Below are positions 12,437 to 41,952 of a stretch of DNA of 64,000 nt, piece by piece. This DNA is from Candidatus Aenigmatarchaeota archaeon (GTDB lineage Archaea > Aenigmatarchaeota > Aenigmatarchaeia > QMZP01 > QMZT01): positions 96,229-160,228 of the forward strand of contig CAVSBQ010000002.1 in assembly GCA_963726265.1 (NCBI GenBank). The letters run 5' to 3'. Position numbers and translations under genes: made by a program. The notes under the pieces are model-generated. The model was not told where the DNA came from. It did not search any database and saw only the letters and a list, made by a program, of their open reading frames with translations. Each line of letters begins with the position of its first letter. Within the stretch, counting starts at the first letter, position 1.

Positions 12437-12640
12437 TCACTGGTCCATGCCCGCATCGGTGTGCTGTCTCTTTTTTCTGAACAAATTACCGAGCTTCTTG
12501 TAGAATGGTTCCTTTTTCCCTAAAAGCGCATCCCTTGTATCAAAATACTCAAAAAAACCAGATATCCCGCCAATTCTGATGTAATCCCAAAGGCTGCAGC
12601 CCATGATGCTGTCGCCACGATTTATCTTTCCGTATCCCAT
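12437..12640 (-). CDS. small hypothetical protein
   Basis: SD GGAG inside the upstream gene; tightly packed in an operon-like run. Confidence 0.5.
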
Positions 12641-12642
12641 GT

Positions 12643-13107
12643 TTATCTCCTTTCGTTTCTTCCGGAGAATTTTTTAATCCGGCCTCCGGCTGTTTTCTTC
12701 TTTTCTGCCTTCTTTTCGGTCTCTATGCCTAGCTGGCCTTCGATTTCCCTGAGGAATTTCTTGTCAGGGAAGCGGATGTCAAGGCTCCTGTGGCCGCGAA
12801 GGTTCGCATACCGCTCCTTGTCAAGCGTTATGAAAAAGTCCCTCTTCGCTTTCATGTGGTTCACGAGTAGGACGAGGTCGCCGTGCTCCGCGAGGTTCAG
12901 GTCATGCTGCGGTCTCGCGAAGACCATCTGCCTGAGCGTGTCATAAATCTTCTCCTCGGTTCTGCTGAGCGTGCCAAGGTCCCTGTTCAGGTTCTGCGCG
13001 TGGAAAAGCCGGAGCTTGCCTTCTTCCTCGAGTTTCTTGAGCTGGTTTATTACCGGATGCCTGTCGTAGAATATCATGGCCGAATGGTCCATGGTTATGC
13101 TTACCAT
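12643..13107 (-). CDS. PIN-like domain protein (divergent)
   Basis: ITMDHSAMI resembles hhhDTNhhh; GDLVLLVNH...RDFFITLDK resembles D..hhA.A....D.hhT.D. Confidence 0.55.
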   Translation of the reverse strand: MVSITMDHSAMIFYDRHPVINQLKKLEEEGKLRLFHAQNLNRDLGTLSRTEEKIYDTLRQMVFARPQHDLNLAEHGDLVLLVNHMKAKRDFFITLDKERYANLRGHRSLDIRFPDKKFLREIEGQLGIETEKKAEKKKTAGGRIKKFSGRNERR

Positions 13108-13243
13108 ATTATCACCGTCTTATCACCGTCTGTAAAATTCTTGGAAAGAAGATTTTTAACCTTATTTTAGCCTCTGTTCTGGTATTAGCCCGTTTTCCCG
13201 CGTTTTCCGCGTTTTTTTAAGCCGGCTGGGCAAAATTATAATC

Positions 13244-13450
13244 ATGGCAAATGCAAGCGCCTGGGTAGTGATTCTGGTCGTGGTGGGGGCTATAGTGCTG
13301 GCTGTCGGCGTAATAGGCGGCTACCTGGCCTCGCTTTCGTCTCCCGAATACTTCCCCGTGTGGATGTTCGTAGCATTTATCGGGATAGTACTCGCCCTGG
13401 CCGGGATCGCGATGGGCATGGGCAGTAAGCCTGCTAGCAGCAACCACTAA
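13244..13450 (+). CDS. small two-helix membrane protein
   Basis: Two TM segments; TATA-like TTTTTAAG about 25 nt upstream. Confidence 0.7.
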   Translation: MANASAWVVILVVVGAIVLAVGVIGGYLASLSSPEYFPVWMFVAFIGIVLALAGIAMGMGSKPASSNH

Positions 13451-13504
13451 ATTACATTTCTCTTTTGCATGGTTTGCCTAGTCTTTTTCCTGAAAGCTTA
13501 AAAT

Positions 13505-13695
13505 CGATATACGTCGCCTCATTTTTATCGCTCACTTCTGCCGCTTCCCCTCTCTCACCAACGGGTCAAATTCAAAACAACCCTCACTTTTGATCCAAAA
13601 ATTATTTTTCATAAAATATATAATTTAGTATATATTTTAAATTATATCTATCATTAAAAATATTTTAAATAAAATATATTATTTTATATATAATT
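13505..13695 (+). repeat. left arm of ~200-bp imperfect inverted repeat (AT-rich inner half)
   Basis: Anchors CGATATACGTCG, GCCGCTTCCC, AACCCTCACTTTT and TTTAGTATATATTTT recur in the same order on the minus strand at 15148-15009. Confidence 0.65.
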
Positions 13696-13728
13696 AAGTA
13701 TAGATAAATAATGTTCCATTTTCCAGGA

Positions 13729-13764
13729 GTTTAAACATCCGTTTAAACGGCCGTTTAAACGTCA
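13729..13764. repeat. three GTTTAAAC units at 12-bp period, containing a perfect 22-bp palindrome
   Basis: GTTTAAACATCC GTTTAAACGGCC GTTTAAACGTCA; CGTTTAAACGGCCGTTTAAACG at 13740-13761 is self-complementary. Confidence 0.85.
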
Positions 13765-13791
13765 TCAAAAACAGAGGCGATGCTATCTGGT

Positions 13792-14328
13792 TTATACATC
13801 TTTAAAGGCCTTTTCAATAAGCTTTCTTTTCTGTTCTTTTCCCATCTGTGTATATATTTTCGTTGTTTCCAGCCGTTCATGGCCCAGCATATCCTGAACG
13901 ACGTCTATTCCAACCCCCATGTTAACCAGGTGGGTCGCATAGCTATGTCTAAGCGTATGGGGATGCACCTCTTCAGGTGCCCGGATGCCCGAGATCCTGG
14001 CATACTTCTTAATTATGTTCCTTATTTGGCGGTCTGAAACCGGGAATAATGTCGATGTTGTCATGTTTTTGATATAGTCACGCAATTCCTCTGCGAATCT
14101 GTCATTTGGTATGAAAACGAGCCTGTCTTTCGAACCCTTCCCCTGAACCACCTTTATCATTTTGTTTATGATATCCACGTCATCTTTTTTAAGGTTCATG
14201 GCCTCTGAATTTCTAAGACCCAGATGGAAAAGGCACTTAAGAAGCATGGAATCTCTGGGGTTCTTTGCAGCCCCGACCATGGCCCTGAATTCTTCCAAGG
14301 TCAGAAATCTTGGCAATTTGCGCGCCAT
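13792..14328 (-). CDS. Xer-like tyrosine recombinase, catalytic domain only (178 aa)
   Basis: GLRNSE (R), GKGSKDR (K), HPHTLRHSYATHL (HxxR), LGH and TTKIY (Y) all present; begins at the LPxxL linker with no N-terminal core-binding domain. Confidence 0.95.
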   Translation of the reverse strand: MARKLPRFLTLEEFRAMVGAAKNPRDSMLLKCLFHLGLRNSEAMNLKKDDVDIINKMIKVVQGKGSKDRLVFIPNDRFAEELRDYIKNMTTSTLFPVSDRQIRNIIKKYARISGIRAPEEVHPHTLRHSYATHLVNMGVGIDVVQDMLGHERLETTKIYTQMGKEQKRKLIEKAFKDV

Positions 14329-14379
14329 TTTATCAGTTTAGTATTTGTTTTGACCATTATATAAAGCTCAGTGTGTCGA

Positions 14380-14407
14380 ATTTCCGAAAATAAGTATTTT
14401 CGGAAGT
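14380..14407. promoter_or_regulatory. 11-6-11 inverted repeat upstream of the recombinase (dif-like site or operator)
   Basis: ATTTCCGAAAA TAAGTA TTTTCGGAAGT, arms 10/11 complementary; just upstream of the recombinase TATA box (TTTATATA on minus strand, about 14359-14366). Confidence 0.65.
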
Positions 14408-14514
14408 AGGGGTTCTGAAGCTAAACGTGTTTTCCCATGGGTTTTTCGGCCGGATAGGCCGTCCCACCAGGTAAAACATGGTTAGAAAAACAAATGTCTG
14501 GAATAAGACTAAAA

Positions 14515-14877
14515 TCACGCAGGTTTTTTCTCGGCTTTCTTTTCCTTCTTGACAGGCTGCTTGGCCTGCTTCCTGCACTTGTCCTCGACCTGGATAAGTT
14601 TCTTCTTGACGGCCTCCATGTTGTGCGCTATGTCCCAGCCGTCGTCGGTCAGCTTGACCCCCTTTATGCGCCCCTTTTTGTCAAAGACTACCAGGCCCAT
14701 GACCTGCAGGACGTCGAGGATCTTTATCGTGTGCGAATACGTGCAGTCCGCTTCCTTTGAAAGGATGGTCGCGTAAACAGGCCCTTTCGCCGTCTTCAGC
14801 GCGAGCAGTATCCTAGCCGGTTTCTCTCTTAAAAACAAGTCTTCCAATATCGGTTTATCAACCGAGAGTTCTGCCAT
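14515..14877 (-). CDS. winged-helix (MarR-like) DNA-binding protein
   Basis: LFLREKPARILL...YATILSKEADCTYSHTIKILDVL...GLVVFDKKGRIKGVKLTDDG; Lys-rich tail. Confidence 0.85.
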   Translation of the reverse strand: MAELSVDKPILEDLFLREKPARILLALKTAKGPVYATILSKEADCTYSHTIKILDVLQVMGLVVFDKKGRIKGVKLTDDGWDIAHNMEAVKKKLIQVEDKCRKQAKQPVKKEKKAEKKPA

Positions 14878-14949
14878 GTTATATTTTATAACAATTAGAA
14901 ATATAAACGTTATCTATGTATTAAAACCGCTATTTTTTCCCAAATAGTT

Positions 14950-15148
14950 TATAATATATATTTTTTATTAAATTTATTTTAATATATTTTTTTAAAAATA
15001 TAATTTATAAAATATATACTAAAAAATATAGTTTGGACAGTTTTCCAGATTTTCACAAAAAGTGAGGGTTAAAAGCGGAAGTGAGGCCTCGAAGCGAGGG
15101 GGTGCGGGAGGCGGCCGGAGAGGAAAACGCAAAAACCGACATGTATCG
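14950..15148 (-). repeat. right arm of ~200-bp imperfect inverted repeat
   Basis: Minus-strand anchors CGATACATGTCG (15148), GCCGCCTCCC (15115), AACCCTCACTTTT (15070) and TTTAGTATATATTTT (15023). Confidence 0.65.
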
Positions 15149-15198
15149 GGCATGTTTTTGAAAAAAAGCCTTACCGAAAACAATTGGCAGTAAACGGC

Positions 15199-17547
15199 TC
15201 AGATTTCAGCTATCTTGGTCACGCCGTCGATTTCCTTGTCGCGCTCGAGACGATAGGTCGAGCCCGTGATGTAATCCGACAGCCGCTCCTCGTGCGTTAT
15301 CAGGAAGACCTGGTCGATGATGTTTTCCATCTTGTCCCTGAGAACTGAGCCGAAATGCTCAATGGCGTTCCTGTCCAGGTTGTGCGTCGGCTCATCCAGA
15401 ATCAGCCAGCGCAGGTTCGGCGTGAACGCGAGCGAGAACGCGATCCTCAGCGCGAGCGACGCGAGCGAGCGCTCGCCACCCGACACGGCGTCCGCGTTAA
15501 GCCATCCCTTCGCCGCCTTGAGCTGAAGAACATAATCCTTGTCGACGAGCATGCGTATCTCGGAGAAGTCTCCGTATGGATAAAGCTCCTCCCATATCTG
15601 GTTCATTATGTAATTCACGGTCTTCAGGAACTCGTCCCTCAGCTGGTCCTGCGTGCTTCGAAGGACAGAGATGAAAACGTCCATGGATACCGTGAGCTTC
15701 TCGTATGCCGCAACGTCCTTCTTGTAGCGCAGGAACGTGTTCCTCTGCACCTCCAGGTCGCGCAGCGCGGCGGTTTTCTCCTTCACCATCTCCTGCAGGG
15801 CGTCGAGTTTCGCCTCCAGCGACCTTGAGCTTCCGACCGCCTCCTGGAGCTCGGCTCTCAGCGCCTTTATGTCCTTGCCCTTCGTTTTCTTCGCAAGCGC
15901 CTTCCTGTGCTTCTCGAGGCTTTTCAGCTGCTTCGCCAGCTCGCCTCTCTCCTTATTCAGCGCTTCGAATTCCTCCTTCTCCCTGAGCAGGCTTTCATCC
16001 CTCGCCATCTTCAGGCGCATTTTTTCGAGCAGCTGCCTGGCGCGCTTTTCCTCCGCCTGCCTTTTCTGTATGTCAGCGGCGATGCTACCGACTTCCTTCA
16101 TGAGCATGCCGATTTTGTCCTCGCTGTCCTTTATCTTGTCCCTGAGCGGGTCAAGCTCCTTCAGCTCATTCCTCAGCTCCGAGTATTGCCCGATGCCATT
16201 CTTGAAACCCTCGATTTGCGCCGCCTCTTTCGCTTCGTTTTCCTTCGCCTCCCTGAGCCGCAGGTCTATTTCTCCCATGTGCTTCAGCCTGTGCTCCAGC
16301 AGCTCTTTCTTGCGTTCGCCCGTCAGATGCGACTCGCAAACGGGGCATTTGTCTCCCGCGCCTTTCAGCTCGGACAGGCCTTTCTCCACAGCCTCCCTCT
16401 CCGCGGCGAGCGCGTATAATTTTTTGCGGAGCGCGTCCAGGCTCTCCAGCATCTCGCCCAGCTTCTTGTCCGGGTTTTCGCCGAGCGCGGCCTCGAGCTT
16501 CTTCAAGCGCAGCTCGTTTTCCTTGCCCGCGGAGAGGCGGAGTTTCGCGTCCTTTATCTGCTCGCGGAAAAAATGAATCCTCCCGTTCTTGGTCGCCACG
16601 CCATCGCGCAGGATGCGTATCTCGCTCTCGAAGCCCTCGAGCCTCGCCTCCAGCCTGTAGGCTTCGCTCTTCGCCTGCTTCAGCGACTCCGGCGTCGTCT
16701 TCGCGGTTCCCCTGACCTTCAGCTTCCTGCTCTCGAGCTGCCTCTGCATCTCCGCGATGCGCGAGCTGAGCGAATCGCTTTTCCTGACTATGTCGTTAAG
16801 CATCCTGTCGTCGGCCTCGTATGTCACGACCTTTTCCGACAATCGCTTCCTTGCACGCTCGATGGCCGAGGCTTCGGAATTCAGCTTTTCGGCTTCGTTT
16901 TTTTTCCCAGCCAGCGTTTTTTCGAGATCGCTTGTTTTCTCCTCGAACCTGCGCCCCTTCATGTCCTCGACGACCCTGAGCATCTCCTTCCTCCGCTCGA
17001 AAAGCCTGTTGCGTATCGAGACCGCCTTCTCCCTCGCCGTCTCGTAGCGGTCGAGCTTCAGCATGGCGTCTATCTGCTGCATGCGCTTTCCCTTGGGAAT
17101 CTGGAGGAAATAGTCCAGCGCGTTCTGCTCCGAGTAAACCGCGCGGGAAAACATGTCGTAATCCATCTGGAGGACGCGTTCGACTTCGCGGCTCACGCCC
17201 TGCGGGTTCACCTCGAGCAGCTTGCCGTTCTCGCGGATTTCAGCGGTCGTCGTCCCGCTGTCCCTCTTGACCACCCTCTTCACGGAGTATTTTTTCCCGT
17301 TCGCGGCGAACTCGACCTCCACCGAGGCGGAGTCTTTGGAGCTCGGCTTGGACATGATGAGGTCGTCAAGCGAGAGCTTCCTGGAGCCGAGCGCGGAGAA
17401 CGTGCCGAAAAGCGCGAAAGCGATTGCTTGCATCACGCTCGTCTTTCCGGAGCCCATGATGCCGAAAAGCGCATTCACGCCTTTGGAGAATTCGAGCTCC
17501 GAGTTGAGATGCGATTTCCAGTTGACGAGCCTGACGCGCGTGATCAT
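15199..17547 (-). CDS. rad50: Rad50/SbcC-family ATPase
   Basis: Walker A GIMGSGKTS, long coiled coil with zinc hook CPVC, signature VSGGE, Walker B/D-loop LILDEPTHNLD, ITH; start ATG 17547 (MITRVRLVNWKSH). Confidence 0.92.
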   Translation of the reverse strand: MITRVRLVNWKSHLNSELEFSKGVNALFGIMGSGKTSVMQAIAFALFGTFSALGSRKLSLDDLIMSKPSSKDSASVEVEFAANGKKYSVKRVVKRDSGTTTAEIRENGKLLEVNPQGVSREVERVLQMDYDMFSRAVYSEQNALDYFLQIPKGKRMQQIDAMLKLDRYETAREKAVSIRNRLFERRKEMLRVVEDMKGRRFEEKTSDLEKTLAGKKNEAEKLNSEASAIERARKRLSEKVVTYEADDRMLNDIVRKSDSLSSRIAEMQRQLESRKLKVRGTAKTTPESLKQAKSEAYRLEARLEGFESEIRILRDGVATKNGRIHFFREQIKDAKLRLSAGKENELRLKKLEAALGENPDKKLGEMLESLDALRKKLYALAAEREAVEKGLSELKGAGDKCPVCESHLTGERKKELLEHRLKHMGEIDLRLREAKENEAKEAAQIEGFKNGIGQYSELRNELKELDPLRDKIKDSEDKIGMLMKEVGSIAADIQKRQAEEKRARQLLEKMRLKMARDESLLREKEEFEALNKERGELAKQLKSLEKHRKALAKKTKGKDIKALRAELQEAVGSSRSLEAKLDALQEMVKEKTAALRDLEVQRNTFLRYKKDVAAYEKLTVSMDVFISVLRSTQDQLRDEFLKTVNYIMNQIWEELYPYGDFSEIRMLVDKDYVLQLKAAKGWLNADAVSGGERSLASLALRIAFSLAFTPNLRWLILDEPTHNLDRNAIEHFGSVLRDKMENIIDQVFLITHEERLSDYITGSTYRLERDKEIDGVTKIAEI

Positions 17548-37343: not shown

Positions 37344-38378
37344 TCAGTACATCTGTATGCCGAGGTCCCTGGAGAACATCTTGTCCACTTTCTTCGTCTC
37401 CTCGGTCTTGCTGCCCAGTATGTAAGGCGAGCTGACGCCGGTTATGATGGTTATGACCTGAAGCTTTCCTTTGTATTCCGGCAGGACGCGCGCTCCCCAC
37501 ATGACCGTCGCGTCGGGATTCATCTTCTTCGAAACGGTTTCTCCTATCAGGCTCACTTCATCGAGCGTGAGGTCCTCGCCTCCGATTATCTGTATCAGGG
37601 CGCCGGTCGCTCCTTCGTAGTCGACATCGAGCAGCGGGTGGTTGAGGGCTATGTCTATCGCTTCCTTCGCCCTGTTCTTCGTGTCCGATATGCCGACGCC
37701 GATGGTCGCGACTCCGCCGGAATGCATGATCGCCTTCACATCGGCGTAGTCCAGGTTGACAAGCGACGGCTGCGATATCGTCTCTGTCACGCCCTTTATC
37801 ATGGTCGCTATGAGGTTGTCCGCGACCGCGAATGCGTCGCCTAGCGGCTTGGTGCCCGCGAGCTCGAGCAGCTTCTGATTCTCGATGACGATTACGGTGT
37901 CGCATGCGTCCCTCAGGTGCAGCAGGCCGTCCTCGGCCTTCTTTATCCTGGCGCCTTCCATCTTGAACGGCAGCGTCACTGGTGCGATGACAATCGCGCC
38001 GAGCTCCTTCGCCATCTTCGCTATCGCAGGAGCGGCTCCTGTCCCGGTGCCTCCGCCCAGGCCGCACGAGATGAACAGCAGGTCGCATCCTTTCAGAATG
38101 TCCTTAATCTGCTCCTTCGATTCTTCGGCTGCTTTTCTTCCCACGTCGGGGAAGCCGCCCGCGCCCATGCCCTTTGTCGTCTCCCTGCCTATGAGCAGCT
38201 TCTTGTGCGCCTTGGTAACCGTTAGATGCTTGGCATCCGTGTTGATGCCGACCGTGACTGCGCCCTTTATGTCCATGCCGGTGAGGCGCGTTATCGTGTT
38301 GCAGCCGCCTCCGCCGCATCCAAAAACCATTATCTTTGCCTGATACGCGTCAAAACCCTCCAATGCATCCGGACACAT
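37344..38378 (-). CDS. ftsZ: cell division protein FtsZ (FtsZ2-type)
   Basis: GCGGGGCN, NTD, GLGGGTGTG, NLDYAD, NHPLLDVDY.GATGAL. Confidence 0.97.
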   Translation of the reverse strand: MCPDALEGFDAYQAKIMVFGCGGGGCNTITRLTGMDIKGAVTVGINTDAKHLTVTKAHKKLLIGRETTKGMGAGGFPDVGRKAAEESKEQIKDILKGCDLLFISCGLGGGTGTGAAPAIAKMAKELGAIVIAPVTLPFKMEGARIKKAEDGLLHLRDACDTVIVIENQKLLELAGTKPLGDAFAVADNLIATMIKGVTETISQPSLVNLDYADVKAIMHSGGVATIGVGISDTKNRAKEAIDIALNHPLLDVDYEGATGALIQIIGGEDLTLDEVSLIGETVSKKMNPDATVMWGARVLPEYKGKLQVITIITGVSSPYILGSKTEETKKVDKMFSRDLGIQMY

Positions 38379-38417
38379 ACTCACACCCCCAATAAACCAT
38401 TCGCCGATAAAACTAAC

Positions 38418-38452
38418 ATACTATATTTATCTATTTGTCTATCTACGTATTT
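38418..38452. promoter_or_regulatory. 8-bp-periodic tract directly downstream of the ftsZ TATA box (candidate operator)
   Basis: TATCTATT TGTCTATC TACGTATT; minus-strand TTTAAATA at about 38449-38456. Confidence 0.45.
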
Positions 38453-38509
38453 AAAAATATTTGTATAGCACGCAGAAAACTTTAAAAAGCATGAAAGTAT
38501 TAAATTACC

Positions 38510-38728
38510 ATGCCTGCAGAAGAATTAAGACAGGAAAAAGTGGAAAAACCGGAGACGATGACGACAACGATAGAGGTCGAAAAAGACCTGTTTCTCAGGT
38601 TCAAGGCGTTCTGCGTCCTCAACGAGATGACGATCTCCGGCGAGATAGAGAAGCTGCTGAGGAAGCGAGTCGAGCAGATGGCCAACAAGAGCGAGTCGAC
38701 GATAGTCACTAAAGAAGCAAAAGAGTAA
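38510..38728 (+). CDS. ribbon-helix-helix DNA-binding protein
   Basis: TTTIEVEKDLFLRFKAFCVLNEMTISGEIEKLLRK fits the beta-alpha-alpha RHH pattern. Confidence 0.75.
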   Translation: MPAEELRQEKVEKPETMTTTIEVEKDLFLRFKAFCVLNEMTISGEIEKLLRKRVEQMANKSESTIVTKEAKE

Positions 38729-38776
38729 TCTGATTCAGCAAACATTTACTTTTCTTTTATTTGCAGGTATCCAAAT

Positions 38777-39517
38777 ATGAAATATGGGAGAATGAGGCTT
38801 AATCGCTACCAGTTAAAAAGTATTGAAAACTTAACTAAAGATGGCAAATCTCTGCAGCACATATCAAATATCACCGGCATAAAAAAGACGACTATTTACT
38901 ACCACACCCGAAAACTCAAAGGAAAAAGTATACAGATGCCTATCATAAGATTCGATTCGGATGAAAAGCTGGGAGAAGCCATCGGTATATTTACAGGCGA
39001 CGGTAGTTTATATTTTGAGCCAGGAAGATATCACTATCAGGTTAGGGTGCATTTCGGTATAAAAAACCTGAATTATTTGAATCATGTTAAAGATTTATTT
39101 GATGCGTCATTTGGTAAAAAATTTCTTATAAAAATGGATGGCCCTAGAAAATTTGTTTTACAGATATATTCAAAGGAAATATTTGCTTTTTTCCATGATT
39201 TTCTCGATTTCGAAAGCCGAGATAAATCAAAAAGTGTGAGTTTGAAAGAGAAATTTTTGAAAAACGAGGTCTTTGCCAAAGGTTTTCTAAGAGGTTTGCT
39301 TGACACGGATGGTACGATATCGAAAACCAAGAACGGTATAAAAATAGCCTTTTATACTTCCTCTCACAAACTAGCTCAACAGATATCGTTTTTATTGAAA
39401 ATGTTTGAAATAAGACATGGTATAACATCATCCAGAAAAGGCCAATATAATGTTTATATATTGAAAAAGGATAACAATAGAATCGTCAAACTACTAAAAC
39501 CATTTAAGGGCCGGTAG
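38777..39517 (+). CDS. free-standing double-motif LAGLIDADG endonuclease-like protein with N-terminal HTH
   Basis: GKSLQHISNITGIKKTTIYYH (HTH); EAIGIFTGDGS and GFLRGLLDTDGT; markedly AT-rich; stop codon lies inside the tRNA. Confidence 0.88.
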   Translation: MKYGRMRLNRYQLKSIENLTKDGKSLQHISNITGIKKTTIYYHTRKLKGKSIQMPIIRFDSDEKLGEAIGIFTGDGSLYFEPGRYHYQVRVHFGIKNLNYLNHVKDLFDASFGKKFLIKMDGPRKFVLQIYSKEIFAFFHDFLDFESRDKSKSVSLKEKFLKNEVFAKGFLRGLLDTDGTISKTKNGIKIAFYTSSHKLAQQISFLLKMFEIRHGITSSRKGQYNVYILKKDNNRIVKLLKPFKGR

Positions 39518-39617
39518 ATCAGCGGTAGATCGCCACCTTGGCATGGTGGAGAAACCTTGTTTCTGCAGAAAGGAAACATGGTTCCATAAGCCTCGGGTTC
39601 AAATCCCGACCGGTCCA
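39508..39617 (+). tRNA. tRNA-Ala(GGC) with 38-nt intron at position 45/46
   Basis: Acceptor GGGCCGG/CCGGTCC with G3:U70, D arm GATC/GATC, anticodon arm CCACC-TTGGCAT-GGTGG, T arm TCGGG-TTCAAAT-CCCGA. Removing 39552-39589 restores variable loop AGGCC. CCA is not encoded. Confidence 0.95.
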
Positions 39618-39688
39618 TTGCTATTTTTTCATCTGGGATGAAATAGAATAAACAATAAAAAAAAGATTGAACTCAAATGCCCAAAGCC

Positions 39689-39739
39689 TTAGCAGCATGA
39701 GCAACCGGAACTTGCCTTCTTGGACTTTTTCTTGACCAT
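39689..39739 (-). CDS. candidate 16-aa microprotein MVKKKSKKASSGCSCC
   Basis: TATA-like TTTTTAAG starting about 29 nt before the ATG (leaderless spacing) and a T-rich tract after the stop. Confidence 0.45.
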   Translation of the reverse strand: MVKKKSKKASSGCSCC

Positions 39740-39807
39740 GAAAATATTGCGCGTGAGCGTCTTAAAAAGATTGCCTTCGGATTCCGAACTTACGGTCTAC
39801 CTGCTGT

Positions 39808-41952
39808 CTACCTGCCGAAGCTTCCAAGCAGGGAAATCACGGCTTCGACCGCGGAGTTGAGCATCCCGAGCAGCTTCTCCAGAAAGTTCTTCTCGCTGAA
39901 TTCGATGGTTGCGGTGGTCGTGTGGGGATTGCCGGCGACGTCGTAGCAGCTGATTTCAAGCGGGTATTCGCCAGGCGCGAGCGCGAAACCGACTTCTTTC
40001 TTGCCGAAAACTTCGTCGAATGCCTGCTTAGCGTCTCCGATAGTGATGGTTACATTTTTAATGGCGGATTTCTTCACGTAGAGCGTGAGCTTCGCTTCTC
40101 CTTCGGCGTAATCCGTATCGTAATAGATGAGCGGCTCGTCGTAAACCTCGATTACCCTCGTTTCCGAAAGGTTCAGGCCGGCTGCGGCAATCTCGAACCT
40201 GACCGCCTTCGAACCTGCTGAGGCGAAAGAAACGGGGAGCGAGACGAAATAGCGGTTCTTAAGCATGAAGTTCGCCAGGTTATCCGTGCCGTCGACGTTA
40301 AGGTTGAAATGCACACTCTCCTCGGCCGCGCCTTTGTTGACGATGTAGGCGGACACGTTCTTCCGCTCGCCCGCCTTCAGGTATGCGGGCGCGGTGACGT
40401 TTTCCATGAATATTCTAAGGTCTGATTTGACCGTAAACGGAAGCGTGAGGACTTCTCCTTCGGAAGTGTATACCACAACATCGTTCACGCCCGTCGCTCC
40501 AGGCACGAAAGAGAAGACGGTCTGGAAATCGCCGGAGGCGTCGAATTCCTCTTTCAGGTCGCCCGCCAGGATGCCAAGCTTCGCCTGGCCGCCTGCTCCC
40601 GCGACTGATATATAAACCTTTTGCTCGTTGCCGAGCATCACGACGTCGGAATAGAGCCGCGCGGACAGCTTCTGTCCGCTGCGCGCGCTGTACTGGGTAT
40701 TGACCGTCGCGTCGACCGTCTTGAACGTGAGAGACCTCGAGTTCAGGGTGAGCGGGCAGGTGAACAGCAGGTTCTTCGGCAGGTCGGGATTGATTTTTAT
40801 TTCCCAGTAGATCTGCTCCTTTTCGCCCGGCCTCAGGATGACCTTCTTTTCCTTGTCCTCGACCTCGACGACGGCGTAATCGCCCGAGCATGGCTCGAGC
40901 ACAAGCCGGCCGACTATGAATTCGCCTGGCACCAGGGTTAGGGCCACGATGCCTGCGTCGCCTTTCCTGAACCCGCCGCTGGAGATGGTGAGGTTATAAT
41001 CCGCCTCTTTTTCGACATCGGAAAATGAAAGCGTGGAAATGTTTATCTTGTCGACGGTGAATCTCGGCTTTTCGGTCATGCCGTAGCCGTAGGCGACGAC
41101 GCTGTTGCCGAACCTGTTGTCCGTGTTCTCGCCGAACTTTATGTGCGCTGCATCGATGTAGCCTATCTCAAGCCACAGCGGGTCCACTGGAACCCATTTG
41201 CCGAGATACGCTTCGGCATACGCATGGCTCTCCCAGCCGCGCTCGCCGTAGGAATAGCCAGACACGAACTTCGCCGGTATGCCTATCGAACGCGCGAAGG
41301 CGATGAACAGCGTCGTGTATTCCGCGCACACGCCCTTCCTTCCCTCGAGGATGGACAGCGCGTCAAGCCGTTTCCCCGCGTAGGCAAGGTCGTAGTTGAG
41401 GTGGTCGTGGACCCATATCGCGAGCTTCGCCACCTTCTCGAAGTCGTCCTTAGAGTCCTGCGTTATCTCCTGCGCGAGGCTGCGGATTCCGGCGTCCGAC
41501 GACTGGATGCGCTCCGTGGGCTGCAGGTAAATTTCCACGTCGTCAGGTATGGCATACGATCCGGGCAGGTAAACCAGATGATTAGCCCTGGATTTCACGG
41601 TGCTCGGAATGCTGTAGGAAAAGGCGTTGCCGGGGTTGTCCTTCTCTATGAATCCCGTCTCGGTCCCGAACTCGTCCTTCACCTTTTCGACGTTTATGCT
41701 GACGTCCTGCCTTTCGTCGTCCTGCGGGATCTCGAGGCTTATCTCGAACCTGGTCGGGTTGCCGTTTATGCTCACGGTGCCTTCCTGCAGGATGCTGAGC
41801 ATGAGCTCGTTGACGCCGGCGGGGTTGCGCAGGACGTTGTCCTCTATGCCCTTCGCTTCCGCACGAGGAACCGCAAACCAGAAAACTGAAAAAACGGAAA
41901 GAAATAGAAGCAGAAAAACCAGCGGTCTGGGACTCCGCCACATGCCACTCAT
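39808..41952 (-). CDS. secreted transglutaminase-like domain protein with Ig-like C-terminal domains
   Basis: Signal peptide; GVCAEYTTLFIAFARSIGIPA, HAYAEAY, WVPVDP (Cys-His-Asp triad); ATGA overlap with the scpA stop. Confidence 0.88.
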   Translation of the reverse strand: MSGMWRSPRPLVFLLLFLSVFSVFWFAVPRAEAKGIEDNVLRNPAGVNELMLSILQEGTVSINGNPTRFEISLEIPQDDERQDVSINVEKVKDEFGTETGFIEKDNPGNAFSYSIPSTVKSRANHLVYLPGSYAIPDDVEIYLQPTERIQSSDAGIRSLAQEITQDSKDDFEKVAKLAIWVHDHLNYDLAYAGKRLDALSILEGRKGVCAEYTTLFIAFARSIGIPAKFVSGYSYGERGWESHAYAEAYLGKWVPVDPLWLEIGYIDAAHIKFGENTDNRFGNSVVAYGYGMTEKPRFTVDKINISTLSFSDVEKEADYNLTISSGGFRKGDAGIVALTLVPGEFIVGRLVLEPCSGDYAVVEVEDKEKKVILRPGEKEQIYWEIKINPDLPKNLLFTCPLTLNSRSLTFKTVDATVNTQYSARSGQKLSARLYSDVVMLGNEQKVYISVAGAGGQAKLGILAGDLKEEFDASGDFQTVFSFVPGATGVNDVVVYTSEGEVLTLPFTVKSDLRIFMENVTAPAYLKAGERKNVSAYIVNKGAAEESVHFNLNVDGTDNLANFMLKNRYFVSLPVSFASAGSKAVRFEIAAAGLNLSETRVIEVYDEPLIYYDTDYAEGEAKLTLYVKKSAIKNVTITIGDAKQAFDEVFGKKEVGFALAPGEYPLEISCYDVAGNPHTTTATIEFSEKNFLEKLLGMLNSAVEAVISLLGSFGR

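Follow-up and report, generated by a model that had tools for sequence, protein, structure and literature searches.

What is a tyrosine recombinase made up of a catalytic domain alone doing beside a small winged-helix gene, with both genes enclosed by the two most AT-rich places of an archaeal genome? This question is raised by a unit of ~1.66 kb (positions 13500-15159) in the chromosome of an Aenigmarchaeote, a member of the DPANN archaea. The window considered here is the whole stretch of 64,000 nucleotides that was analysed (C2:96229-160228 of genome G000, whose assembly comprises 1.13 Mb in 4 contigs and is 88% complete); positions without a contig name are window positions. Relatives were surveyed in 40 genomes within the order and in 301 sampled genomes across the phylum, 98 of which are of high quality. 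The answer that we favour, tentatively and as something quite possible rather than probable, is that the unit holds a Xer/dif-like cassette for resolution, complete in itself, which sits within a winged-helix locus that is older and bracketed by AT blocks. The locus as a whole probably serves chromosome maintenance, in a form that has not been described so far, and its older layer may be architectural, centromere-like or origin-associated. A literature search, with most subscription journals outside its reach, returned no description of this locus, of Xer-like enzymes without a core-binding domain in archaea, or of origins or dif sites in Aenigmarchaeota. The four features on which the argument turns are the following.

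13792-14328, minus strand: short tyrosine recombinase of type A, 178 residues, catalytic domain only, closest to XerA
14354-14367, minus strand: putative TATA box of the recombinase gene, GCTTTATATAATGG (read on the minus strand), ~25 nucleotides before the ATG
14380-14407, no strand assigned: dif-like core site ATTTCCGAAAA-TAAGTA-TTTTCGGAAGT, 28 bp, with 11-bp inverted arms and a 6-bp spacer
14515-14877, minus strand: winged-helix protein, 120 residues, whose C-terminal helix is long and whose tail is rich in Lys; single-copy gene throughout the phylum

The only Pfam match of the 178-residue protein is PF00589, which covers residues 8-163 (expectation value (E) 1.4e-32, 113 bits against a cut-off of 27.1). 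Neither Pfam nor NCBIfam detects in it the N-terminal core-binding (SAM-like) domain that "simple" tyrosine recombinases have (PMC8138268). The best curated family is XerA_Arch (NCBIfam NF040815, an equivalog), with 154.3 bits against a cut-off of 220 over model positions 91-259 of 263; this cut-off is set for whole proteins, and the short enzyme reaches neither it nor full-length coverage, whereas the true XerA of genome G103 scores 280.6 bits. The closest solved relative is XerA of P. abyssi (PDB 4a8e, residues 97-276, E 5e-41), and the structure model of the recombinase is confident, with a mean predicted local distance difference test (pLDDT) score of 85.7. All 32 type-A family members in the alignment share R39, K64, H124, R127, H150 and Y159 without exception; the HxxR motif, the second His and the Tyr are invariant across types A, B1 and B2, which are introduced below. 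The original prediction, made from the letters of the window, of a recombinase with the full R-K-HxxR-H-Y set and no core-binding domain is thus borne out.

The shortness of this enzyme points to a stable, selected state and not to truncation, because the family is uniformly short and its catalytic residues are invariant. The family has 353 members at E <=0.001, and the best 120 of these 353 measure 154-245 residues. It had also been claimed that no remnant of the missing domain lies upstream, which agrees with our results: the upstream gap of 186 nucleotides is too short to hold the domain, and the six-frame XerA match starts at model position 82. A split XerA, with its core-binding domain encoded by a separate gene, was considered for G000 and rejected, as no such gene was found in the assembly (88% complete). 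The sole SAM-like/core-binding domain of the genome is that of a second tyrosine recombinase, a protein of 365 residues at C1:13719-14816 (L002:1159-2256) that has this domain at its N-terminus and a zinc ribbon, CxxC...CxxC, at its C-terminus; its gene lies on a 15-kb contig and may be part of a mobile element. A longer open reading frame (ORF) of family f6 (357 residues, G303) was set aside as well, its N-terminal extension being Pro/Glu-rich and of low complexity, with no core-binding domain. Across the relatives, the short recombinases, about 180-210 residues in length, form three paralogous types (A, B1 and B2) that are ~30% identical to each other and sometimes stand in tandem. Full-length XerA-like genes (model positions ~4 to 261) are present in 16 of the 40 relatives, and none was found in the five genomes of this genus, where the short recombinases are the sole Xer-like enzymes left. 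As the TATA box lies ~25 nucleotides before the ATG, the recombinase mRNA is probably leaderless.

The second element that carries our reading is the palindrome at 14380-14407, ~35 nucleotides upstream of the recombinase TATA box. It is the single site of its kind in the 1.13-Mb genome, so that the dif-like palindrome announced between the two genes does exist, in an 11-6-11 arrangement, and its occupancy should also affect transcription of the recombinase gene. Type-A loci carry the form TGTCCGAAAA-N6-TTTTCGGACA, with the variant TTCCGAAAA in G000 and G020; 14 type-A loci possess an upstream region of their own, and of these 9 have intact arms, 2 have one decayed arm and in 3 the site was undetected. 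The 6-bp spacer varies freely and the arms are conserved. Type-B1 loci have ACGTTACAGAA-TGTATA-TTCTGTAACGT (3 of 3), and type-B2 loci have GGTTTACA...TGTAAACC with a spacer of 6-7 nucleotides (5 of 5, two of them imperfect), plus extra half-sites. Because the palindrome changes with the enzyme subtype, whereas the recognition helix of the winged-helix protein (CTYSHTIKIL) is invariant in 36 of 36 sequences, the palindrome appears to belong to the recombinase and not to the winged-helix protein.

Two further observations were made around this site. Loci L034 (G006) and L036 (G019) show orphan B2-type palindromes, extra CTCACTTTT boxes and several TATAACA palindromes upstream of the type-A site, with no B2 gene; the orphan palindromes may be the trace of a past exchange of recombinase cassettes. 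In G000, a conserved, GC-rich imperfect hairpin (GGGACGGCCTATCCGGCCG...) is present in 14408-14514, between the stop codon of the winged-helix gene and the palindrome; it can be aligned within the genus and may be a terminator or a further binding site.

The pairing of the two genes is widespread within the order. The winged-helix gene is present in 34 of the 40 relatives and a recombinase match in 36; when the two coordinate tables were compared by hand, 26 of the 34 proved to have a short recombinase no more than ~1.1 kb away from the winged-helix gene and 2 more had one within 6 kb, and in 6 it was on another contig, distant or not found. In the window's own family, the short recombinase stands beside the winged-helix gene in 17 of 17. 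The non-coding flanks align across genera, with the same boxes in the same order, in loci whose proteins are 52-88% identical, and in all 18 aligned loci the module points the same way with respect to its flanks. The upstream neighbour is a DUF373 gene in 5 of 5 loci checked outside the genus and the Rad50 gene in G000. This layout is vertically inherited. The linkage of the genes and the conservation of the flanks, both of which mattered to the original prediction, are therefore found in the relatives, and the two genes are co-oriented, as it had stated. The arrangement is more than a chance one and is confirmed, on stronger grounds than could be had from the letters of the window alone.

The pair is bracketed by two AT blocks, which, together with their flanks and the promoter of the winged-helix gene, comprise the following features.

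13500-13522, no strand assigned: distal box on the recombinase side, AAAATCGATATACGTCGCCTCAT, conserved across genera (alignment of 12 loci)
13531-13591, plus strand: pyrimidine-rich outer flank, with CTCACTTC at 13531-38, GGGTCAAATTCA at 13563-74 and CCCTCACTTTT at 13581-91
13592-13712, no strand assigned: AT block downstream of the recombinase gene, 92.6% AT, with the inverted-repeat motif TTTAGTATATATTTTA at 13624-13639
13713-13760, no strand assigned: inner edge of the recombinase-side block, with GTTCCATTTTCCAGGA and then three GTTTAAAC at 12-nucleotide spacing (13729-13760)
14877-14912, minus strand: promoter of the winged-helix gene, with TATA box TAACGTTTATATTT (14899-14912) and palindrome TGTTATATTTTATAACA over the start codon (14877-14893)
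14878-15034, no strand assigned: AT block upstream of the winged-helix gene, 89.2% AT, with the inverted copy of the repeat motif at 15008-15023
15058-15085, minus strand: outer flank on the winged-helix side, with AAAAGTGAGGG (inverted CCCTCACTTTT) and GAAGTGAG (inverted CTCACTTC)
15136-15159, no strand assigned: distal box on the winged-helix side, CCGACATGTATCGGGCATGTTTTT (alignment of 18 loci)

Read along the minus strand, the unit runs from a distal box through a purine-rich flank that ends in AAAAGTGAGGG, an AT block and the winged-helix gene to the 186-nucleotide spacer with the palindrome and the TATA box, and from there through the recombinase gene, the three GTTTAAAC and the second AT block to CCCTCACTTTT inside the pyrimidine-rich flank and the second distal box. 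Windows with at least 85% AT per 100 nucleotides cover 13566-13740 (peak 96%) and 14876-15067 (peak 95%). These peaks are the two highest 100-nucleotide AT values in 1.13 Mb, and the four other places that reach at least 85% peak at 85-89%. Two of these four, at C2:556 kb and C2:926 kb, were considered as related AT elements and rejected; they lie in or beside low-GC coding genes.

The original prediction described the blocks as homologous inverted AT-rich elements of ~200 bp, and this description holds in part. The bracketing blocks are there, and so are two motifs that the arms share in inverted arrangement. CCCTCACTTTT has exactly two copies in the genome, one at 13581-13591 and an inverted one at 15058-15068; TAGTATATATTTT likewise has exactly two, one on each strand. 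Each motif stands once at either block, and their order is the same. The long repeat is not convincing by itself, since the complementarity of the arms, 73% over 80 nucleotides, is no more than AT-only sequence gives. The homology of the arms is thus, as far as these comparisons tell, real and limited to the two inverted motifs; the boxes GGGTCAAATTCA, GGGTCAAATT and GGGGTCAAATT are found on the recombinase side only. Among the 11 loci in which both arms could be compared (L040 was dropped, having no anchor), the identity of the arms is 0.67 within a genome and 0.66 between genomes, and orthologous arms reach 0.71 and 0.73. Because the arms of one genome are about as alike as arms of different genomes, they seem to be kept by selection on the shared motifs and not homogenised by recombination; recombination of the arms with each other was rejected, there being no concerted evolution.

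The triple GTTTAAAC repeat reported downstream of the recombinase gene is present at 13729-13760, and the motif is conserved in relatives. The doublet GTTTAAAC-N4-GTTTAAAC occurs at seven intergenic places of the genome, mostly just upstream of start codons; as six of these lie elsewhere (C2:43915, 51862, 625120, 668745, 928410 and 1084315), it looks like the promoter or operator motif of a small regulon and is not specific to the module, so that the presence of the repeat stands and its assignment to the module does not.

How far this layout extends beyond the order bears on the age of its parts. Among 19 loci centred on the winged-helix gene, two AT blocks surround the pair in 16, and one block is present in 3, two of which are cut by contig ends. 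A wider sample was composed of 47 loci from outside the order and 1 locus from within it. An AT block of at least 88% lies directly upstream of the winged-helix gene in 23 of these 48 loci, and a second block lies 0.5-1.9 kb downstream in ~13 of the 48; the blocks are absent in 25 of the 48 class loci and in family f6, with the winged-helix gene retained. A recombinase is found within 3 kb in 4 of the 48 loci, and three of these are full-length XerA enzymes of family f13 (281 bits, above the cut-off), whose genes stand 0.75-1.4 kb away from that of the winged-helix protein in 3 genomes. What lies between the blocks in other orders is a gene for one of several unrelated small winged-helix-like proteins, which belong to no Pfam family. 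Because the AT bracket and the winged-helix gene are found outside the order mostly without a recombinase, they appear to predate it. In many relatives the contig stops no more than 1-2.5 kb away from the winged-helix gene, in many cases at an AT block (L062, L069, L070, L072, L073, L076, L080, L081, L094 and L096; also L010, L016 and L037), and the locus seems to break assemblies.

The winged-helix gene is present once per genome in 262 of the 301 phylum genomes and in 91 of the 98 of high quality, and its product is 57-88% identical within the order. The protein has no Pfam or NCBIfam family, and in the ESM Atlas it matches generic winged-helix clusters only. Its structure model (mean pLDDT 71) has the winged-helix fold, as the original prediction had it, and the best Foldseek matches are AF1382 (E 9e-6, template modelling (TM) score 0.82) and AspA, the centromere-binding protein of the Sulfolobus plasmid pNOB8 (E 5.4e-5, TM score 0.79), both scores being normalised to the target. 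The AspA chain 4rs8_A superposes on this model with a root-mean-square deviation of 2.0 over 78 columns, and MarR, ArsR and Sso10a folds score almost as well as AspA. With a sequence profile of 36 members, AF1382 is matched at E 1.6e-6 and the AspA chains at E 0.077-0.27, which is not significant. The palindrome TGTTATATTTTATAACA over the start codon would be the operator of the winged-helix gene. Palindromes of the type TATAACA-n-TGTTATA, or a permuted form, number 7 in the genome against ~0.02 expected by a rough estimate; sites of this type lie at 14877-14893 of the window and at C2:213340, 629046, 1000842 and 1009392-1009413, and the palindrome is also present in the cdc6-side origin of 6 of 6 genomes, between the winged-helix and recombinase genes of several relatives (as many as 7 copies) and at a handful of ordinary promoters.

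Taken as a Xer/dif-like cassette within an older locus, the unit would consist of two layers. The first, phylum-wide, would be the winged-helix gene, of AF1382/AspA-like fold, whose promoter adjoins a block of ~170 bp with >90% AT, and a second, inverted block usually beyond one further small gene. The second layer, specific to the order, would be a XerA-derived recombinase that has lost its core-binding domain and has its own 11-6-11 site upstream of its TATA box. The recombinase would bind the palindrome as a dimer; two copies of the site, as on sister chromosomes or on a chromosome dimer, would synapse; and strands would be exchanged across the 6-bp spacer, so that dimers would be resolved as in Xer/dif systems. 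An occupied site would in addition regulate the recombinase's own promoter, as at res/tnpR. We infer the binding, the recombination and the dimer resolution, and any part of the winged-helix protein or the AT blocks in them.

The position of the unit in the G000 chromosome is consistent with such a role. The genome has a single orc1/cdc6 gene at C2:627.7-629.0 kb (its only Cdc6_C match is at C2:627774-628055), next to a canonical origin at C2:628959-629150 (L043), in which the origin recognition boxes (ORBs) CTCCAGTGGAAAT, TTCCCATGGAAC and TTCATATGGAAC stand around a stretch of 79% AT. The module lies 518 kb, or ~165 degrees, from this origin. Archaeal dif sites are described as unique 11-6-11 repeats, 122-180 degrees away from oriC, whose flanks are conserved or which have inverted repeats on either side (PMC2958812). 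Among the roles proposed in the original prediction, the dimer-resolution module fits best: XerA is the best family, the unique 11-6-11 site tracks the enzyme subtype, and the site lies ~165 degrees from the canonical origin of this genome.

Several observations weigh against this reading. A location at the terminus is not general, since only 129 kb separate the module from cdc6 in G303, on a contig of 742 kb; the winged-helix gene alone is 26-187 kb from cdc6 in three further single-contig genomes. Neither composition nor k-mer skews reveal a terminus or a skew switch at the module: GC skew, GC3 skew (that of third codon positions), gene-strand bias and k-mer skews are driven by gene orientation and by the region at 725-850 kb, and the skew extremes after masking (~470-565 kb, and ~1065 kb to 55 kb) match neither the module nor cdc6, so that we judge the skews uninformative. 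The first catalytic Arg is replaced by Ser in the f6 form and by Lys in one A' copy. Full-length XerA and a short recombinase are found together in at least 5 genomes (G006, G008, G010, G011 and G019), and therefore the short enzyme is not simply a replacement. The winged-helix-like proteins that occupy the recombinase's place in other orders hint at a slot for a DNA binder or regulator, and the palindrome, lying beside a promoter, could be an operator only. Finally, we know of no tyrosine recombinase lacking the core-binding domain that resolves chromosome dimers. As a side observation on the skews, C2:725000-850000 is strongly biased in strand and skewed in its k-mers (GTTG, ACA); very long genes in one orientation probably lie there.

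The first alternative is that the locus is an origin, or an origin-associated region, independent of Orc, in which the AT blocks unwind, the winged-helix protein is an initiator or origin-binding factor, and the recombinase is an origin-proximal resolvase as on plasmids. The blocks, which hold the two most AT-rich windows of the genome and are conserved in sequence, agree with the AT-rich unwinding element of an oriC. A DNA-binder gene adjoins an AT block in 23 of the 48 loci, outside the order too, and a weak PHROG match points to a DnaD-like helicase loader (E 0.0023). There is also a palindrome, TATAACAnnGTTATA, that lies in the cdc6-side origin region in 6 of 6 genomes (L043-L048) and, for 6 of the 18 loci of the order, within or close to the winged-helix locus, but this palindrome is found in ordinary promoters as well. 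In its canonical form, the origin can be regarded as excluded, because there are no ORBs at the module and cdc6 with its ORBs lies elsewhere. Five relatives show the same ORB/cdc6 origin, with cdc6 and the module on different contigs in all five; a regular expression for the ORB core gives 3-5 matches in each of 6 cdc6 loci, and none in 13 of 18 module loci or at any AT block, with only stray single matches, away from the blocks, in the remaining module loci. No orc1/cdc6 or whiP initiator gene adjoins the module. The origin with a winged-helix initiator put forward in the original prediction therefore fails as a canonical origin. Against an Orc-independent one stand the size of the winged-helix protein, which at 120 residues has no ATPase domain, the retention of its gene in the 25 class loci and the family f6 where the AT blocks are absent, and the lack of a skew switch. 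We consider such an origin unlikely, with a real if small chance of being right.

In a second alternative, the short recombinase has the fold of a recombinase and the role of a sequence-specific repressor or DNA binder, the palindrome is its operator only and the whole is a regulatory cassette. The place of the site, just upstream of the recombinase TATA box, would suit an operator, the same slot holds small winged-helix-like proteins in other orders, and the replacements of the first catalytic Arg by Ser (f6) and Lys (one A' copy) point the same way. There is also a precedent in MrpR, reported as a recombinase-fold master repressor of SPbeta (PMC10516654). However, a catalytic set that is invariant in 32 of 32 type-A members and kept in types B1 and B2 is unexpected for a mere binder, and a spacer of 6 bp (6-7) is the geometry of recombination cores. 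On balance, a purely regulatory cassette seems to us unlikely.

A third alternative is a centromere-like partition site, in which an AspA-like protein binds and spreads over the AT-rich inverted elements and the recombinase resolves multimers, as in the stability regions of plasmids. It draws on the nearness of the winged-helix model to AF1382 and AspA in structure and on the single-copy, phylum-wide gene. The sequence match to AspA is not significant, however, and the MarR, ArsR and Sso10a folds are nearly as good; nor does a ParA/ParB-like gene stand beside the winged-helix gene in the window, where its neighbours are the recombinase gene and rad50 (ParA was not searched for elsewhere in the genome). 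A partition site of this kind is, in our estimate, distinctly unlikely.

The original prediction had also proposed a two-part recombinase whose specificity is supplied in trans by the winged-helix protein. The relatives give this idea some support in principle, but with another partner. Nothing ties the winged-helix protein physically to the recombinase, and its gene, which is phylum-wide, is mostly found without a recombinase. Directly downstream of B-type short recombinases, six genomes (G002, G018, G010, G038, G023 and G030) encode a protein of ~200 residues with an invariant GGIxD...ECGPC motif, here called the ECGPC protein (L024:82-687 in G002 and L027:89-697 in G018). In four database proteins of 364-382 residues (P0242-P0245), the ECGPC domain is joined to the N-terminal side of a type-A-like catalytic domain, which shares 50-55% identity with that of G000, and in five of the five other f6 genomes searched a single long frame (454-514 residues) consists of an ECGPC-like stretch upstream and a recombinase part. 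The ECGPC protein has no sequence match in Pfam, NCBIfam, PHROG or PDB, and in the ESM Atlas it matches unnamed clusters only, plus a single weak lead to a nuclease (0.83). In its stand-alone form it has the same C-terminal end as the recombinase, IEKAF. XerA and Cre-type enzymes exchange C-terminal helices, and by analogy with this exchange the common IEKAF end may hint at docking of the ECGPC protein and the recombinase. No ECGPC gene was found in G000 (assembly 88% complete). These comparisons support, in principle, a modular recombinase with ECGPC as its partner.

Some of these elements can be joined in one broader picture, which we think rather improbable: a compact maintenance hub in which an AspA/AF1382-like protein would organise the two inverted, readily unwound AT elements, as a centromere or as an Orc-independent origin, tied to oriC by the shared palindrome, and in which dimers would be resolved by a modular recombinase. 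The DNA-holding module of this enzyme would be exchangeable, absent in G000, provided in trans by ECGPC in some relatives and fused in others. If this picture is right, no split or two-component tyrosine recombinase would precede it, and DPANN archaea would have their first defined dif- or centromere-type locus.

The unit could also be the fixed remnant of an integrated mobile element with no cellular function, its distal boxes being old att sites and its inverted elements the ends. The distal boxes are indeed direct repeats of ~22 bp that flank the whole 1.66-kb unit, which carries a recombinase gene and has a lower G+C content than its surroundings. Against this, the winged-helix gene is single-copy in 262 of 301 phylum genomes, with 57-88% identity within the order, the non-coding flanks align across genera, and DUF373 stands upstream in all 5 loci checked. 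The genome holds no second copy, and IMG/VR contains no relative of the winged-helix gene and, for the recombinase, only relatives at <=35% identity, save one 38-residue fragment at 55%. We consider a mobile remnant very unlikely. It is likewise very unlikely that the unit works as a FimB/FimE-type invertible switch whose recombination sites are the two inverted elements: short, paralogous and sometimes tandem recombinases and inverted flanks recall it, but in all 18 loci GGGTCAAATT and the neighbour genes are oriented alike with respect to the module, the arms (0.67 within against 0.66 between genomes) are not homogenised, the cognate palindrome is single, central and outside the arms, and the invertase models score 52.4 and 40.5 bits against cut-offs of 221 and 222, so that the switch suggested in the original prediction is not supported.

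The surroundings of the unit are those of an ordinary archaeal chromosome, with neighbour genes for aIF2-gamma, Rad50, FtsZ, fibrillarin, Nop5 and NiFe hydrogenase. A tRNA scan of the window returned nothing and no viral or plasmid genes are present among the 49 neighbouring ORFs scanned, in agreement with what had been stated; an Rfam scan of 12500-16000 gave no match. Downstream of ftsZ, a low-GC stretch (38001-40000, 40-46% G+C) contains an ORF of 246 residues with a LAGLIDADG domain at 38777-39517.

Tyrosine recombinases are thought to need the core-binding domain to clamp DNA, and here a whole lineage keeps XerA-derived enzymes that lack it, are catalytically intact by their residues and have a dif-like site for each subtype. 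This offers a natural system in which to ask how much of the enzyme recombination needs and how a separate module can supply specificity. The AT elements and the phylum-wide winged-helix gene mark a conserved place on the chromosomes of DPANN archaea, a group in which replication, segregation and the resolution of dimers are essentially unstudied. The cis elements are short and precisely defined, which makes binding and recombination assays directly feasible.

Among known systems, the XerA/dif pair of P. abyssi is the one that our favoured Xer/dif-like reading resembles most. The catalytic domain of G000 is its best match, and there is in both a single recombinase species and a unique site with 11-bp arms and a 6-bp spacer, with conserved flanks and, in G000, far from oriC (PMC2958812). 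In contrast, the gene of G000 adjoins its site, whereas the xerA genes of Thermococcales are not next to dif (PMC2958812). The G000 enzyme also differs in having no core-binding domain and a score below the equivalog cut-off, and the system differs in its three divergent subtypes, each with its own site, and in the AT inverted elements and winged-helix gene around the module.

In XerS/difSL and XerH/difH, which are bacterial and FtsK-dependent, one recombinase gene is adjacent to a chromosomal core site. G000 is alike in having the gene beside the site, but those enzymes are of full length (~356-363 residues; 363 in the chain of 5jjv). FimB and FimE (NF007370 and NF007371, model lengths 200 and 198), which depend on accessory DNA-bending proteins, are likewise short, of the size of a catalytic domain, and form paralogous pairs; their sites, however, are inverted repeats that flank the switch, with the genes outside, whereas the site of G000 is single and its orientation fixed.

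The winged-helix protein, for its part, resembles AspA (4rs8, 5k5q) and AF1382 (2qvo), small winged-helix proteins of the dimer type with a C-terminal helix, which are its best structural matches. It departs from them in that only AF1382 is significant by sequence, and in that the G000 gene is chromosomal and phylum-wide, encodes a Lys-rich tail and has no adjoining ParA/ParB genes. Lastly, an archaeal oriC shares with the module one or more AT-rich elements flanked by inverted short boxes beside the gene of a DNA binder, and differs from it in the ORBs and the Orc1/Cdc6 gene, which in G000 mark the canonical origin elsewhere.

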